A stretch of DNA of 20,573 nt from an uncultured Acidobacteriota bacterium (GTDB lineage Bacteria; Acidobacteriota; Vicinamibacteria; Vicinamibacterales; UBA8438): contig CAJWLU010000040.1 in NCBI GenBank assembly GCA_913043225.1, forward strand, positions 1 to 20,573. Direction: 5' to 3'. Of the stretch, positions 6,001 to 12,000 are shown piece after piece. Position 1 is the first letter of the stretch. Each line of letters starts with the position of its first letter. Position numbers: made by a program.

Positions 6001-9000
6001 TGCTGAGCGTGACCGACTACACCAGCGACAAGGCGGCGCTGACGGCCGGGGTCGACGAAATGGAACGGGGCAACGACGACGCCTACTTCCTAGACGCCAT
6101 GATCGCGGCAGCCGCAACAGTGGCCGCAGCCGAGCGCGAGTTCTTCCCGGTATTCGTCAACCTGGCGACCGACAAGGACGAGGGCAGCGAGGGTGACCAG
6201 GCCGCGTTCGAGGGCATGGTAAACAACGTGGCCACAAACGCCGGCACCGTGCATACACGACTGCTCTACACCGAGGATGGCGACGCAGATCAGAGCATGC
6301 AGGCGCTAGTTGGCCCGATCGGCCAGCAGACCCCGGGCGGCTCCTACGAAGCCATCGCGGACGTGACGACCCTCGAGGCGAACCTGACGGCCCTGGCCGA
6401 GAACATCGCCCGCAAGAACGGGCTGGTGAGTGTGCAGTATCGCGTGCGGTACAACCCACCAGCCAACGCCGGCCCAGCGCCTAACATCTCGGTGGCCTCG
6501 ACCCGGGTGGGACTCAACCTAATTCCGACGATCGACGGTAACCTGCCCTAACTTCTTGACGCACCCGTGTCGTCTGGACGGTCACTCGCGACCGTCCGGG
6601 CGCGGGGAATTCTGTCGGGCGCGAGCCAGGTCCTCGAAGACCGTGGCCAACGCCGGGAAGGTCGCGATCAAGGTCCGGAAGTCACCCCGCCCAATCGTCA
6701 GCACATCGACAGGCGTCAAGGCGGTCACAGTCGAATTCCGAGGCACCACATCAAGGAGCGCCGCCTCGCCGAAGTAATCTCCTGCCTCGAGCACAGCCAG
6801 CCGCTCCGGCCGACCGTCGAGACCGCGGCGGCTCACCGCCACCCGACCGGTCCGTACCACGAACAACTTGTCACCGAAGTCACCCTCGCGCACCAGTTCC
6901 TCTCCCTCGTCGAAGTGCTCGGCCGAGATTGAACTGGTCCGGTCGGTCTTGAGCTGCACGATGTCCTGACGCAGGACCAGATCGAGCGTCCAGTCGGTGG
7001 CCACGCGGAGCTTGCGATCCAATCCTGGCAGCTTGAGCAAGTAAACGGTGCGCCACACCCACCAGGCGAACAATCCGGAGAGCTTGAATCCGAATACCTG
7101 GGCCACGGCCGACCGCCGTCCCAACGACACGAGCTGTCCAAGCGACGAGAACGAGAACGTAGTCTGGGCTGAACCATCGATCGCGGCAAGGATATTGTCA
7201 GCGGCGCAACGGGCCTCTCGGATAGCGTGCTGTGCGGTCGGCGGCGCCGGCCGGCCGGTGCGCGTCTCGGTCACCGCCGCGCAATCCCCGACTGCCCACA
7301 CCCGATCTAACCCAGGCACCGCGAGATGCGCGTCGACCGGCACCCGGCCGCGATGCAGCTCTACCGGCAGTGTCTGGAGAAGCGGGTTCGGACCGGAAGG
7401 CACGGTACTAACGATTGTCCTGGTCTCTAGTCGATCGCCCGTCGACATTCGTGCCCCCGTAGCGGTCGCTACTTCGAGCCGGGTGCCAAGTCGGATCTCC
7501 ATGCCCCGCCGGGTCAGCAGCCGGTGGGCGAACCGGCCCAGACTCTCATCGAGCTCAGGCAGAATCCGATCGCCGGAATGCAGCAACACCACACGAAGCT
7601 CGGCCGCATCGAGACCTCGGTAGTCCCGGACGACTTCGTGCACGAAGTCGTTGAGCTCGGCCGCCAACTCCACTCCGGAGAAGCCACCGCCAGCCACGAC
7701 GAACGACATGAGCCCGCGTCGGACCTCCGGGTCGATCTCCACCGCGGCTTCCTCGAGGACGTTAAGTACGTGATTTCGGACTTGCAACGCATCGCCCAAC
7801 GACTTAAACGGAAGGGCATGCTCACGCCCTCCTGGAAGGTCGCCAAGAGCGGGGACGTTGCCCAGCGCGACCACTAGATGATCGAAACCGAGCACCACGG
7901 GCCGAGGGCGCACGCCCGGTCGCAGCGTGACGGTACGAGCCGTTAGATCGACGGAGTCGATCTCCCGGGTGTAGAGCCGGGTGCGGGGACACAGACGACG
8001 GAGCGGTGCGATCGTGTCGACAAGCCCGATACTGGCCGAGACGACTTCGGGGATGAGCGGTTGGAAGATGAGGTAGTTTTCACGGCTGACGAGTGACAAC
8101 TCGACGTCGTCTCGACGCCTGAGCCGCCGCTCGAGCCGCATCGCCGCGTAGACCCCGGCGAACCCGCCACCGAGGATCAGTATCCGTTGTCGATTCACCG
8201 GCGCGGCTCACTGGGATTCACGGAAACACGCGGTTAGGCGTTCACCCGTGCCCTCGACCACGGGAAACGGCTCGGTCTCGAAAATGGAGAGCAGGAGGTC
8301 TTCCTCGGTCTTGCGGACGTGACCGGTGTCGGTTTCGGGGTGGGCCGTCACCATGGCATCCCTCGCGCGATGATCGCGGCCGCCGGGCGAATCCCGACGG
8401 GAGACAATTCTACTTCCCAGGACGGGCCAGATGACTCGTGGACGGGATAATCTCGCGAGGGCCGCCAGCGAACAATCCCGATGTCGGCCGTTACGCTACC
8501 ATACAGTCCGCGGGTCCCTTCAGGGGTCGCATCCCGCCAATGTTCATCCTGAGCTATACCCAGAACGGCGTCGCCCGACGGCACCAGCTACAGCCCGGCA
8601 CCACGCTGGTCGGCCGCGCGCCCGAGTGCGACCTGCTGATCGAAGACCAGAGCATCTCTCGACACCATGCCGAATTTTCGGTGACCGACACGGCGTGCGA
8701 GGTCCGGGATCTGGGAAGCCTCAACGGGACCTATCGTAACGGCCGGGGGGTGACGCGGGTCACGGTGGGCGGCGGCGACACACTCACGCTGGGGCAGTTA
8801 CCGGTCCAGGTGCACGAGTCGCATGAGGAGCAACTTACGCTCACCGACGATGTGGTCGTCCTCGACGAGGAGCGCACGCTCTCCCGGTCGGTGTCCCAGC
8901 TGGGCACCCCAGAAACGAGGGTGTCAGGCGTCGACGCTCCACGCCTACTGTCGCTCCTTTCGGCTCTGGGACGCCTCCTGATCGAGACCGATACCCTCGC

Positions 9001-12000
9001 GGACCTCCTCGAGCGAGTCGCCGAACTGGTCTTCGACGCAGTGCCAGCCGATCGGTGCTATCTGCTGCTTGGCGGTCCCGACGACATCCCCAGCCCGCGA
9101 GTGGTGCGGCAGCGAAACGGCCAGCCCCCGGCAGACGCGTCAATCAGCCGGACCATCATCAATCGCGTCCAGCAGGATCAGGTGGCGATGCTGGCGGCCA
9201 ACGCCCAGCTTGACCCGCGGCTAGCTACCGGCGAGAGCATCCAGATGCAGAACATCCGCGCGTTCATGTGCGCGCCATTGTGGAACCGGACCGACGTCAT
9301 CGGTGTGCTCTACGCCGACAGCCCGGAGGTGGACCGCTTCGTCGCCGCGGATCTCGATCTGTTCACCGCGCTGGCGAACTCCGCCGCCGTCCTGATCGAG
9401 CGGGCGCGACTCGCCGATCGGGTGCTGGAAGAAAGGCGCCGACGCGAACGGCTGCAGCGCTATCATTCGCCGGCAGTCGTCGAGCGGATCCTGGACGATG
9501 CCCACGCCGGTGACGGTGCCTTCCTCGCGCAGGAGCGCGAGGTGAGCGTTCTGTTCGCCGACCTAGTGGGCTTCACGAGTCGCGCCGAACGGCTCCCACC
9601 AAATGAAGTGGCCCATCTGCTCAACGGCTGCCTGGGCACGATGAGCGAAGCGGTCTTCGAACAGGATGGGATGCTCGACAAATTCATGGGCGACGCACTG
9701 CTCGCCGTGTTCGGCGCGCCGTTCGATCAGCCCGACCACGCGCTGCGGGCGGTGCGGGCCGCGACTGGTATCCGGAACAGGCTCGACGCCGCGAACCGCG
9801 AGCGTCCGGACGACCCGCTGGCGGTTCGCATCGCGATCAACAGCGGCCTCGTCATGACGGGCGACATCGGCTCACCGAAACGGCGGGAATACACCGTGCT
9901 CGGCGACGTGGTGAACACCGCGTCCCGGCTCCAGTCCCAGGTCGCCGGCGCGGGAGATATCGTCATCAGCCGCGCCACCTATGACCAGATCCGCGATCAA
10001 GTAACCGCACGGTCGCGTGGCCCCATTACTCTCCGCGGCCGGTCCGAGCCGGTTGAGGTCTTCGAACTCTAGTCAGGGAATTCGCCATTCGTTCTAGTGC
10101 TCCGCCGCAAGGGTACAAGAGGGTCGCCACACCTCGTACTACAGGGGTTGCGAAGTAGCGACGGGAACACTACTGTTAGCCGGTATCTGCAAGGCTAGAC
10201 TGCCCCCCTCGAGATACGTCATGCGCATCAAGCTCAGAACCGACCCGCCGTCCCGGCCCGGGAACCGGCACAGTATCTCGTTTCTACTGGTCTCCCTGCT
10301 GGCGTCCGGCATACCAGCAATCGCCCAAGTCGGCGGGCCGGCGCAGGTACTCACCGCCGCCGACGTCACCGCGCTGATCACGACGGCGGCGACGGCTCTC
10401 GACGACAGCTCGCTGGCCGTAGCAGTCGTTGACCGCCGAGGCGCCATCCTCGGCGTATACGGGCGGCCGGCCACCCCGCCTCGGACACCTGACATCGCGG
10501 TGTCACTGGCACGGACCACCGCATTCTTCAGTAACGACCAAGCGCCGTTGTCATCTCGCACGGTGAGATTCATCAGCGGCATCCACTTCCCGGCCGGAGT
10601 ACCGAATACCCCCCCGGCGGCACTCTACGGCGTGGAAAACATCAACCGCGGCTGCGACCTTGGCCCGTTCAACTCTGGGGTCGCGATTCCGCGGCCGCGG
10701 TCTCTGGCCGGCACGGTCGGGACCGGAGCGGGCAACGTGCCGCTTCCCTGCAACCCACGCGACACACGTGGCTGCGCGGTCGGGGGACCAATCGAGGGAC
10801 AGGACGGCTCGCCTATCTACTCGCTTGGTATCACGACCGGGAAGCCCAACCTCGAGGACTCGCCGAATGCATTCCCCGCCACCGGTGGCGGTCTCGAGGA
10901 CGTCGATCCGGGCGGAATCCCGCTCTATCGCAGCGGCAAGCTGATCGGTGGCATTGGCGTCGCCGGAGTACCCCCAGACCGTGCTCAATACGCGGCGCTG
11001 GTGGCGGCGGCGGCCACCGGACGCGGACTCACGACGGCGCTGGACTTCCCAAACGCGCTGCCATTCCCTGGCGCGGTCTTTATCGACGGGATCCGGCTGC
11101 CGTTCTACGGGTCGTGCGGCACCAATCTGAGGTGTATCCAGGCAGAGGCTGACGGCCGACCGAGCGGCACCGCGCCCGGGTCATTTAGCCAAGGCAGCAT
11201 GCTGGTGCCACCGCAATCGGGCGCCGACGCTCCCGAGGGCTATCTTATCGGTCCGCGGGGAAGCCCAGGTGGCGGACTAACGCGAGCCGACGTCGAGCAA
11301 ATCGTCAATCAGGCGCTCGCCACCGCCGACATCACCCGGGCGCAGGTGCGGCTGCCCTTCGGGCAGACTGCCAAGGTCATCATCGCGGTCACCGATGCGA
11401 GGGGCGCGGTGCTAGCGGAGTACCGCATGGCTGACGCGCTCTTCGACGCCGTAGACGTGGTGCCGTCGAAAGCGCGTAACGCCTACTACTTCAGCAGCCG
11501 CGAGGGCTATGAAGTGCTCCGTGGCTACGTCGAACGGAGCACGGCGGACGATTACACGTGGGAACCAGAACCGCCGGATCCGCAGTTCGGCTGGGCGCTG
11601 ACCAGCCGCACGATCGGGTTCGGCGGGCAACCGCTGTTTCCGCCGGGAATCGACCTCGAAAAGACGCCGACCGAAGACGGTCCTGGATATCCCACGCCTA
11701 GCGGTAGGACACGCGCCAGATATACAACTTGCGCGCGATCACGGCCTGCCAGCCACAACCCTCAATTCGTCGAAACTGCCCTGAGCTACGCCGTGAACCG
11801 ATCGAACATGTCTTTCGGCGCCCCTTAGTGCGGCATCTTGATCTGCAGCAGTTCGTACATTCGGACGACGGCGCGCGGATCGGCCTGGTCGGCACGGGCC
11901 CTGTAGTGCTCGCGGTGAGCAGTTAGATCCACCTGCGCGGCCGCCTCATCGACCGGTACGCCGCGCGCGTGCAAGTCTGCCACCTGACCATTGAGATCTC

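Follow-up and report, generated by a model that had tools for sequence, protein, structure and literature searches.

Canonical NADH dehydrogenases of type II (NDH-2), such as those of C. thermarum (4nwz), mycobacteria (Ndh, 9mqy) and S. aureus (5na1), share with the protein described here a pair of Rossmann domains, a quinone motif and an amphipathic C-terminal membrane anchor, but they stop after the anchor without a ligand-sensing domain, whereas the present protein adds a cyclic-nucleotide-binding (CNB) domain. The mycobacterial acetyltransferase Pat, in which autoinhibition is relieved by cAMP, likewise joins a single CNB to an enzyme and lacks a DNA-binding part; it differs from the present protein in being cytosolic and in having an N-terminal CNB with a GNAT acetyltransferase as the catalytic partner. 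An NDH-2 with its own second-messenger module is represented by the EF-hand NDH-2 of plants and fungi, for which excerpts of two papers propose regulation by Ca2+ (PMC5299459, PMC6134880). Direct messenger control of NDH-2 is therefore not new in principle. In those enzymes of eukaryotic mitochondria a Ca2+ module is inserted within the catalytic core, whereas in the bacterial fusion a whole CNB, a cyclic nucleotide module, follows the anchor, and a dedicated cyclase often lies in the same operon.

In 2007, Kannan et al. listed fusions of CNB domains to pyridine-nucleotide oxidoreductases as 'Bact_Pyrredox' and suggested, in the excerpted text, that CNB domains touch 'NADH production' (PMC2246266). 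These proteins likewise join a CNB to a pyridine-nucleotide-disulphide oxidoreductase fold, but they carry tandem CNB domains with the cassette GEMGLISGRRRGATVRA, and the excerpts describe neither an NDH-2 identity nor a link to a cyclase (PMC2246266). In the Atlas, the Pyr_redox_3/CNB clusters are separate from those with NDH2_C. The genome survey that drew attention to the locus had come across no description of allosteric second-messenger control of NDH-2; our literature search found no paper on a cAMP-gated NAD(P)H:quinone oxidoreductase of this kind. The respiratory chain is also reshaped by cAMP in mycobacteria, where cAMP-CRP controls respiratory genes transcriptionally and ndh expression is unaffected (excerpts of PMC13720381). 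That system acts via a transcription factor, whereas in the host genome studied here no HTH_Crp_2 match exceeded the cut-off (best 20.4 bits versus 27), in agreement with the survey's finding that a Crp/FNR-type regulator is lacking.

The NDH2-CNB protein

The window, i.e. the whole stretch of 20,573 nucleotides analysed, belongs to a genome with a completeness of 96.15%, whose host has been summarised as a marine soil-type bacterium. It contains the following features:

6582..8198, minus strand: NDH2-CNB gene, 538 aa, GTG start; NDH-2 fused to a CNB domain
7212..8186, minus strand: two-Rossmann flavoprotein core (Pyr_redox_2, aa 5-329; profile match and motifs)
6984..7139, minus strand: NDH2_C membrane-anchor region (aa 354-404; profile match and model)
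6660..6920, minus strand: CNB beta-barrel (cNMP_binding, aa 427-513; profile match and model)
6726..6773, minus strand: phosphate-binding cassette FGEAALLDVVPRNSTV (aa 476-491; alignment)
8199..8539, no strand: divergent spacer of 341 bp between the NDH2-CNB gene and the cyclase
8208-8354, minus strand: 48-aa ORF inside the spacer (ORF call)
8540..10072, plus strand: FHA-GAF class III cyclase, 510 aa from ATG 8540
8606..8794, plus strand: FHA domain, phosphothreonine-peptide reader (profile match)
8996..9394, plus strand: GAF domain, small-ligand sensor (profile match)
9533..10051, plus strand: cyclase catalytic domain (two metal Asp, Lys and Thr, Asn, Arg)
10221..11828, plus strand: protein with two HbpS-like domains (profile matches), 148 bp downstream of the cyclase

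The coordinates and the domain order Pyr_redox_2/NDH2_C/cNMP_binding given by the survey were the same in our profile search, in which NDH2_C scored 36.1 bits (cut-off 27.7). Judged by its architecture, catalytic residues and fold, the 538-aa protein is a peripheral-membrane, non-pumping NDH-2. It could be aligned end to end with C. thermarum NDH-2 (E 7e-48), and likewise with the mycobacterial, S. aureus, B. subtilis and yeast enzymes. In a Foldseek search, its AF2 model (pLDDT 87.2) matched 4nwz with a TM of 0.91 and an rmsd of 2.2 Å and 9mqy with a TM of 0.84; none of the solved chains among these matches covered the CNB part. Two dinucleotide-binding motifs of the GxGxxG type are present, GGGFAG at residues 10-15 and GGGFSG at 170-175 (GGGFSGVE, 170-177), and the glycines of both recur in 163-168 of the 168 fused relatives. 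The quinone motif AQHAIR (residues 322-327), directly after the Rossmann core, is of the AQxAxR type, and Q323, A325 and R327 are invariant or nearly so in the 168 fused sequences (R327 in 167). According to excerpts of the main NDH-2 family survey of 2017, AQxAxR is a recognised quinone motif found in 15% of 1762 NDH-2s (PMC5299459). That study knowingly excluded NDH-2s with fused domains, again according to the excerpts (PMC5299459), and the 538-aa protein, with its C-terminal CNB, falls outside its set of enzymes with no other domain. In the model an amphipathic anchor is formed by helices 376-389 and 393-408, and a 15-residue linker of low model confidence leads from it to the CNB.

The protein differs from the C. 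thermarum enzyme in the AQxAxR form of the quinone motif and in residue 207, where the alignment places His opposite Glu. The His is shared by 79 of 90 fused relatives (Gln in the other 11) and 45 of 46 unfused ones. As we take this position to decide between NADH and NADPH use, the electron donor is uncertain. The host genome contained a single NDH2_C match, no NDH-2 paralogue was detected in it by tblastn, and NuoD was found, placing proton-pumping complex I alongside the sole NDH-2.

The CNB domain scored 76.7 bits with cNMP_binding (cut-off 27.5), and PF00027 was present in 119 of the 120 best homologues, as the survey had stated. It aligned without gaps to the domains of PKG and PKA, with FGE (476-478) and R487 in register, and its closest solved relatives (PKG, PKA, Crp, MloK1) are true cyclic nucleotide binders; in the model, helices 504-529 come after the barrel. 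The Gly-Glu pair and the Arg of such cassettes hold ribose and phosphate. By alignment, the phosphate cassette of the window protein is intact (G477, E478, R487), and among the 168 fused sequences these residues are kept in 168, 164 and 161, respectively. The family as a whole has a canonical cassette. That of the window protein continues as R-N-S, which departs from the pattern R-[STA]-A. The survey had read the deviation as R-N-S-T; the residues are indeed non-standard, but they represent a gapless substitution at positions R+1 and R+2 and not an insertion. At R+1 the family has T (66 of 168), N (37), S (36) or M (18), whereas R+2 is A in 156 sequences and S, as in the window, in 7 of 168. 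The domain also matched the Pat model NF058543 (E 3.7e-8), and the 25 residues following it contained no HTH, so that the architecture is not that of Crp/FNR. Throughout the genome PF00027 exceeded its cut-off three times, as reported previously: once in the window and twice in the only other CNB protein, a 2xCNB-NTE_Ploop-patatin protein on contig C3.

The divergent cyclase and its recurrence beside the fusion

The genes lie head to head with a 48-aa call between them, as the survey had described, the spacer measuring 341 bp from ATG 8540. In the spacer neither a sigma-70-like promoter nor a terminator nor an Rfam match was found, and the 48-aa ORF matched no family in the profile search. The junction is spanned by contigs that two other studies obtained from relatives of ~97% identity (X9 at 5967-8827, X12 at 7379-9160) and is therefore not an assembly artefact. 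A longer plus-strand ORF, 8438-10072 (FHA 57-119, GAF 187-319, Guanylate_cyc 366-538), would permit a start at the upstream GTG 8438, but ATG 8540 is probably the true start, since 119 of the 120 best homologues share the three domains and are ~510 aa long.

The cyclase matched PF00211 with 89.3 bits, and its six catalytic residues (D, K, D, T, N, R), among them the two metal Asp and the transition-state Asn and Arg, recur in CyaB of P. aeruginosa and CyaC of Spirulina. Its motifs dKfmGD and yTvlGD correspond to CyaB (3r5g) and CyaC (1wc0), whereas Cya2 (2w01) has E and G. Presumably, Lys and Asp/Thr are the adenine-specifying residues of class III cyclases, and because the window cyclase has Lys and Thr, its product is probably cAMP. 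It was described in the survey as the only nucleotide cyclase of the genome. For class III this could be reproduced, with one PF00211 match over the cut-off, and no class I cyclase was found in the genome; however, a 186-aa CYTH protein on contig C1 reached 56.5 bits with TIGR00318 (class IV adenylate cyclase), slightly short of the cut-off of 57.95, and is a possible second source of cAMP.

The survey had feared that the pairing arose by chance. This fear was not borne out: a class III cyclase lies within 300 bp of the gene at 19 of 95 non-redundant fused loci and at none of 48 loci of unfused relatives (Fisher raw p 3.7e-4, in a test that ignores relatedness), and only 0.6 adjacent cyclases are expected from the 10 non-adjacent ones in 960 kb of flank, a ~30-fold excess. 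These numbers show that the pairing is not due to chance. When only loci flanked by 1.5 kb or more on each side are considered, the counts become 13/52 and 0/25. In 17 of the 19 cases the cyclase is directly upstream on the same strand, and at least four kinds of sensor module occur in the partners (HAMP, REC, weak dCache, CHASE2, FHA-GAF). Adjacency is scattered across the tree, requiring at least 12 changes. Of the recurrent neighbour clusters, those of the cyclase and of an ECF sigma factor were jointly the largest (18 loci each); ECF sigma factors and zf-HC2 anti-sigma genes recur beside the fused gene (18 loci).

G729, a relative from a different genus of the family (64% identity), keeps the NDH2-CNB gene, the divergent FHA-GAF cyclase and, downstream of it, the HbpS-like gene; in G729, too, the FHA-GAF cyclase is the only class III cyclase. 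The position of the HbpS-like gene is common to both family relatives with the locus. In a further relative (G636) the fused gene and the cyclase are 7.4 kb apart with a kinase/PP2C cassette between them, and a TAG at codon 444 cuts off the CNB. Three order-level relatives had no cyclase within ~8 kb of the fused gene, and in the class-level sample 1 of 17 complete fused genes had one within 1.5 kb. G453, a single chromosome of 2.8 Mb encoding the fusion with a canonical cassette, gave no PF00211 or CYTH match. The FHA-GAF cyclase family was found in 112 of 401 genomes, and none of its 29 other loci in the phylum had an NDH-2 within 1.5 kb. The pairing is thus specific to some lineages.

Eight partner cyclases of the Lys type accompany the cassettes R-N (6), R-S (1) and R-M (1), whereas 17 of other types (15 Glu, 1 Arg, 1 His) accompany R-T (10) and R-S (7) and never R-N. 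The cyclase type changes only three times on the tree, with two to three independent pairs, so that the match lacks significance when relatedness is taken into account.

A putative cAMP-gated quinone oxidoreductase

We consider it fairly probable that the fused protein is a cAMP-gated NAD(P)H:quinone oxidoreductase. In this reading, the FHA domain would let the cyclase follow phosphothreonine signalling, in a genome with seven Pkinase matches, its GAF domain would let it follow a small ligand, and the cyclase would produce cAMP; this, as we infer for both the binding and the identity of the ligand, would occupy the cassette (G477, E478, R487) of the divergently encoded NDH2-CNB protein. The cAMP-bound CNB might then alter NDH-2 output directly, without a transcription factor, by relief of autoinhibition or by altered membrane or quinone access. 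Both the existence and the sign of this effect are presumed, activation being slightly favoured over inhibition because of the analogy with other CNB-fused enzymes. The direct two-gene circuit proposed in the survey is partly supported. Recurrent adjacency, the varied sensor modules, the canonical cassette of the family and the arrangement in G729 speak for it and make its comparative support stronger than was thought there, but the pairing is confined to some lineages. The recurrence suggests that a second messenger could switch electron entry into respiration directly.

The CNB might instead bind a cyclic nucleotide without gating catalysis, serving localisation or partner contacts (membrane recruitment, dimerisation, assembly) or acting as a cAMP buffer or reporter. 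The position of the domain directly behind anchor helices 376-408, on a low-confidence linker, fits this, as does the equal conservation of residues 403-416 in fused and unfused relatives, which means that this stretch is not a coupling element peculiar to the fusion. Yet cassette and catalytic motifs are both strongly conserved, and localisation shades into cAMP gating, since the rate of a peripheral quinone reductase is itself set by its binding to the membrane; as a separate explanation it appears rather unlikely. We give a still lower probability to the view that the CNB senses something else than the product of the neighbouring cyclase, or nothing, and that the head-to-head cyclase reflects inherited gene order without functional coupling. 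FNR, CooA, CprK and NtcA have CNB folds for other ligands, the cassette departs from the standard at R+1 (N) and R+2 (S), and the cyclase-free G453, the separated genes and interrupted CNB of G636, the 0/29 other FHA-GAF cyclases and the 1/17 class-level relatives would all agree with it. Against this stand the retention of the cassette G, E and R in 161-168 of 168 sequences, the true binders among the closest solved relatives, the excess of adjacent cyclases of several types and the trio kept in G729.

In place of the favoured cAMP-gated respiratory enzyme, the protein could also be a cyclic nucleotide-regulated, NADPH-preferring quinone reductase that, like FSP1, supplies reduced quinols for stress defence. 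His207, prevalent in fused and unfused relatives alike, and the recurrent ECF sigma/zf-HC2 neighbours are compatible with such a role, and FSP1 was a structural match in Foldseek, although a far weaker one. We regard this as very unlikely, as the protein bears all NDH-2 hallmarks and is the sole NDH-2 of a genome otherwise equipped with just complex I; moreover, NADPH-using NDH-2s are still classed as NDH-2 in the excerpts of the family survey (PMC5299459).

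The fused NDH-2 and its locus

The survey's finding concerned a gene, here termed NDH2-CNB, whose product was described as carrying Pyr_redox_2, NDH2_C and cNMP_binding (CNB, PF00027) domains in that order. This domain order was confirmed, with all three domains above the Pfam cut-offs. The gene lies head to head with a class III cyclase gene, and the locus shows no compositional break in the window, which has a G+C content of ~65%.

Genes at the locus (window coordinates, strand, product)
4081-5394, minus, MFS transporter; ordinary neighbour
6582-8198, minus, NDH2-CNB, 538 aa; Pyr_redox_2 5-329, NDH2_C 354-404, cNMP_binding 427-513
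8438-10072, plus, cyclase open reading frame; FHA, GAF and Guanylate_cyc domains
10221-11828, plus, protein bearing two HbpS-like domains and a hydrophobic N-terminus, downstream of the cyclase (also L267:11491-13350 and L264:3114-3527 in loci around relatives)
13626-15851, plus, PQQ-dependent dehydrogenase; ordinary neighbour
17931-19340, plus, AhpC/redoxin-domain protein, 469 aa; ordinary neighbour

No link of the PQQ dehydrogenase, the AhpC/redoxin protein or the MFS transporter to the NDH2-CNB/cyclase pair was seen. The cyclase most likely starts at the ATG at position 8540, because its homologues are ~510 aa long with the same domains, and the divergent spacer to NDH2-CNB would then measure 341 bp. 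The three domains and this length were found in 119 of the 120 best homologues, the exception being P0149 (396 aa), which is without FHA. The 48-aa open reading frame in the spacer had no family match, and a search of the spacer for a promoter-like site, a terminator and an Rfam match revealed none. In the whole window there was no sigma-70-like promoter and no Rfam match, and the one terminator-like site, fewer than in shuffled sequences, was located inside the NDH gene. The NDH/cyclase junction is not a mis-assembly, as it was bridged by ~97% identical contigs from two other studies.

Residues 1-387 of NDH2-CNB could be aligned end to end with the NDH-2 of Caldalkalibacillus thermarum (E 7e-48), and the NDH-2 part was also alignable with the mycobacterial, Staphylococcus aureus, Bacillus subtilis and yeast enzymes. 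An AF2 model built from 105 sequences (pLDDT 87.2, pTM 0.79) superimposed on 4nwz with a TM score of 0.91 and an rmsd of 2.2 Å. Its C-terminal part runs from anchor helices (376-408) through a low-confidence linker to a barrel (424-503) and two helices (504-529); in a structure search with the model, no solved chain covered the C-terminal domain. Both GxGxxG motifs are nearly invariant among 168 fused relatives. As quinone motif the protein has AQHAIR, and AQxAxR is given in an NDH-2 family survey as a recognised variant present in 15% of 1762 NDH-2s (PMC5299459). In the second Rossmann fold, His207 aligns to a Glu of C. thermarum NDH-2 and is kept in 79 of 90 fused and 45 of 46 unfused proteins, i.e., NDH-2 relatives lacking the CNB domain. 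We take this position to govern the preference for NADH or NADPH and therefore write the donor as NAD(P)H; the occurrence of His207 across the subfamily, fused and unfused, hints at a preference different from that of C. thermarum. The stretch D412-L416 was considered as a fusion-specific coupling linker and rejected, as it is conserved in unfused relatives as well. No NCBIfam model names the protein (best TIGR03169, 122 bits versus a cut-off of 310), and open frames of ~650-1030 aa around some class-level homologues contained no additional Pfam domain.

The solved sequences nearest to the CNB domain are true cyclic-nucleotide binders, namely PKG, PKA regulatory subunits, Crp and MloK1. The phosphate-binding cassette (aa 476-491), YFGEAALLDVVPRNSTV, aligned without gaps to YFGERALLYDEPRSATI of Plasmodium PKG. 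The survey had noted a deviation from the canonical R-[ST]-A. This holds for the window protein, whose R-N-S is a minority form, but not for the family, whose cassette is canonical as judged by its conservation in the 168 fused proteins: F476 is present in 167, G477 in 168, E478 in 164, A480 in 153 and R487 in 161. In the other seven, which form a Chloroflexota clade, R487 is replaced by His and an Arg is found one place earlier. The residue following R487 (R+1) is Thr in 66, Asn in 37, Ser in 36 and Met in 18 proteins, and the next (R+2) is Ala in 156 and Ser in 7.

As the survey had stated, the fusion is common in metagenomes under a plain name: the Atlas contained many Pyr_redox_2-NDH2_C-cNMP_binding clusters of 539-695 aa, mostly named 'NADH dehydrogenase family'. 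When a representative library was searched with aa 369-538, 94 matches had E <= 1e-30, and 46 of the best 150 representatives spanned the NDH2_C/CNB junction in one stretch, in a list dominated by multi-CNB proteins. A deep-branching clade additionally carries CBS domains.

NDH-2-CNB-CBS proteins of ~665 aa (locus coordinates)
L062:9219-11240 (Planctomycetaceae)
L064:10001-11986
L076:5563-7551
L083:10001-12004

The Planctomycetaceae gene is convergent with, and 24 bp from, an FHA-GAF cyclase of the window type (E 2e-92). An NDH-2/CNB fusion was not described in any paper that our literature searches, which covered papers without their supplements, brought up; the survey, too, had found no description of allosteric second-messenger control of NDH-2. 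The fusion may have gone unremarked because NDH-2s with fused domains were left out of the NDH-2 family survey (PMC5299459). The EF-hand NDH-2s come closest as a precedent for a messenger control that is built in (PMC5299459), and the family with tandem CNB and Pyr_redox domains listed by Kannan et al. 2007 (PMC2246266) differs from NDH2-CNB. Control of bacterial NDH-2 was found described at the level of transcription only.

Predicted cyclic-nucleotide synthesis and targets in the genome

The window cyclase possesses both metal-binding Asp residues, the catalytic Asn and Arg, a Lys (dKfmGD) and a Thr (yTvlGD), the last two at what we take to be the base-choice positions of class III cyclases. 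The same Lys and Thr are present in Pseudomonas aeruginosa CyaB and Spirulina CyaC, whereas Synechocystis Cya2 has Glu and Gly there, and we therefore read the window enzyme as a predicted adenylyl cyclase.

According to the survey, this is the only nucleotide cyclase of the genome. No other cyclase of class III is present and none of class I was found, but a CYTH protein scored just below the class IV cut-off and is a possible second source of cAMP. The claim thus has to be read as 'only class III cyclase'.

Further proteins of the genome (contig coordinates, strand, product)
C1:365742-366302 (L094:1489-2049), plus, CYTH protein, 186 aa; TIGR00318 (class IV adenylate cyclase) 56.5 bits, cut-off 57.95
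C3:21974-24232 (L004:1-2259), minus, NTE-like protein, at least 753 aa; two CNB domains, NTE_Ploop, patatin lipase domain

The reported absence of a Crp/FNR-type regulator was upheld in this 96.15% complete genome, as no Crp-type HTH scored above the cut-off. The NTE-like protein is the sole CNB protein besides NDH2-CNB. Since this CNB-NTE_Ploop-patatin protein is the only other cNMP receptor, cAMP likely has two targets in the genome, a respiratory enzyme and a phospholipase. NDH2_C was matched once in the genome, and no paralogous NDH-2 is encoded there; NuoD of complex I is present, and Hanks-type kinases gave seven matches.

Association of fused genes with cyclase genes

The survey had cautioned that the pairing with a cyclase may be chance. 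We analyzed 160 loci around NDH relatives, 80 of 341 from genome contigs and 80 of 456 from metagenome contigs; neither scan contained a relative with more than 61% identity. After removal of 6 duplicates, the loci were split by whether the match reached the CNB domain into 95 fused, 48 unfused and 11 cut by a contig end. Class III cyclase open reading frames were identified by means of a profile derived from the loci themselves; Pfam confirmed 17 of the 17 submitted from genome-contig loci, and those of the metagenome loci are identified by this profile. Of the 95 fused loci, 19 had a cyclase at a distance of up to 300 bp and 27 had one at up to 6.5 kb, compared to 0 and 1 of the 48 unfused loci; the raw Fisher p-values (3.7e-4 and 8e-5) overstate the case because the loci come from related organisms. 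When only loci extending 1.5 kb or more to each side were counted, adjacency amounted to 13 of 52 versus 0 of 25. The flanks of fused genes (960 kb) contained 10 cyclases that are not adjacent; this density predicts 0.6 adjacent cyclases, compared to the 19 observed, and a chance pairing is thus not borne out. Seventeen of the 19 were directly upstream on the same strand as the fused gene, often only a few bases apart. Adjacency also occurred in 3 of the 11 cut loci. The partner cyclases vary in architecture (HAMP, REC, dCache with a weak match below the cut-off, CHASE2, FHA-GAF), and adjacency changed at least 12 times in a FastTree phylogeny calculated from the NDH-2 part, 9 of the changes being forced by well-supported branches. 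Among recurrent neighbour clusters, cyclases (18) were the joint largest with ECF sigma factors (18), followed by glycogen debranching enzyme (11), glucokinase (8) and stand-alone CNB proteins (8). Six contig sizes were common to the NDH and cyclase match lists (133396, 17056, 140313, 168858, 47762 and 4770), which only hints that both genes are on the same contigs; a 4770-base contig carrying both could only hold them side by side.

At the sequence level, the NDH-2 variant is real and conserved and appears to be new, and its coupling to partner cyclases has good comparative support with some counter-examples. Of 401 genomes sampled at class level, 27 matched NDH2-CNB at E <= 1e-110 (the unpublished G528 entering this tally and the unfused count only), and a cyclase within 1.5 kb was found for 1 of 17 complete fused genes, that of G729. 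Three order-level carriers had no cyclase within ~8 kb and each has one elsewhere in the genome, and the 2.8-Mb single chromosome of a Dehalococcoidia genome (G453, source of locus L034) encodes an NDH2-CNB with canonical cassette and had no PF00211 or CYTH match. Among 401 genomes from the phylum, 112 had an FHA-GAF cyclase (including, for this tally only, the unpublished G103), and no NDH-2 was located within 1.5 kb in 29 other best FHA-GAF cyclase loci.

The locus is patchy within the family through loss or transfer, as NDH2-CNB was matched in 2 of 64 same-family genomes and the FHA-GAF cyclase (E <= 1e-80) in 0 of 7 sampled. G729 (64% identity, another genus) has the same order of NDH2-CNB (minus), FHA-GAF-cyclase (plus) and HbpS-like protein (plus), and this cyclase is its sole PF00211 match. 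An HbpS-like protein follows the cyclase in 3 of 3 family genomes with the locus and in 0 of the 29 further loci with an FHA-GAF cyclase. G636 (79% identity), the closest of the relatives analyzed, has the same end genes with four genes between them.

G636 locus L266 (G636:C5:32000-51000)
8913-18999, NDH gene and FHA-GAF cyclase gene; between them, on the NDH strand, genes for PP2C phosphatase, Ser/Thr kinase (968 aa), TPR protein and PEGA-PDZ protein

The presence of both a kinase and a phosphatase is in keeping with an input through FHA. In the G636 NDH gene a TAG at codon 444 severs the CNB domain, of which a remnant is still recognisable. Of the 120 best homologues, only P0007 (443 aa, 14 member sequences) lacks PF00027, and it looks like the same truncated allele.

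Cassette residue, cyclase type and proposed mechanism

The R+1 residue was compared with the presumed base-specifying residue of the cyclase in 25 cases where the fused gene has a cyclase no more than 6.5 kb away. Lys-type cyclases (n = 8) were paired with R-N in six cases, R-S in one and R-M in one, and non-Lys cyclases (n = 17; 15 Glu, 1 Arg, 1 His) with R-T in 10, R-S in 7 and R-N in none. The pattern (raw Fisher p 1.6e-4 for Lys versus non-Lys against R-N) is a prediction of ligand matching that has not yet reached statistical independence, as cyclase type changes only 3 times on the tree, leaving 2-3 independent pairs, too few for any test.

We give slightly less than an even chance to NDH2-CNB being a widespread, unstudied class of messenger-gated respiratory enzymes, including lineage-specific wiring, a cassette code, CBS integration and a kinase relay. 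Each lineage would couple its own sensor cyclase (HAMP, REC, Cache, CHASE2 or FHA-GAF) to the same NDH2-CNB effector, and the R+1 residue would separate cAMP-type from cGMP-type modules, tracking whether the partner cyclase has Lys or Glu. With the CBS domains of the deeper clade, a single enzyme would integrate energy charge and cNMP. In this genome, a relay from a Ser/Thr kinase via the FHA-GAF-cyclase to cAMP would set, within seconds, the share of NAD(P)H entering the quinone pool by the non-pumping route versus complex I. How fast, uncoupled re-oxidation of NADH is balanced against energy-conserving complex I is set by NDH-2, which in pathogens is also a drug target. If true, this would be the first case of a bacterial respiratory dehydrogenase controlled directly by a second messenger, through a built-in cyclic-nucleotide switch, and a new kind of cAMP/cGMP target in Acidobacteriota, Methylomirabilota, Verrucomicrobiota, Chloroflexota and Actinomycetota, five phyla in which few roles of these nucleotides are known. 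The paired cyclases would offer natural cAMP and cGMP versions for comparison.

Some further neighbours and domain combinations were observed. Fused genes of Methylomirabilota-type loci recurrently occur with an ECF sigma factor (18 loci) and zf-HC2 anti-sigma factor, debranching enzyme, glucokinase and a CNB protein.

Examples of recurrent neighbours (locus coordinates)
L145:448-1227
L133:3672-4130
L132:5678-7438
L013:3449-4582
L018:3295-4005
L125:10502-11266

In one genome (G039) a Crp-family regulator is encoded directly downstream of the fused gene. Two cyclase homologues of ~625 aa (P0231 and P0247) contain ECF sigma domains (PF07638, PF08281) besides the FHA-GAF-cyclase domains.
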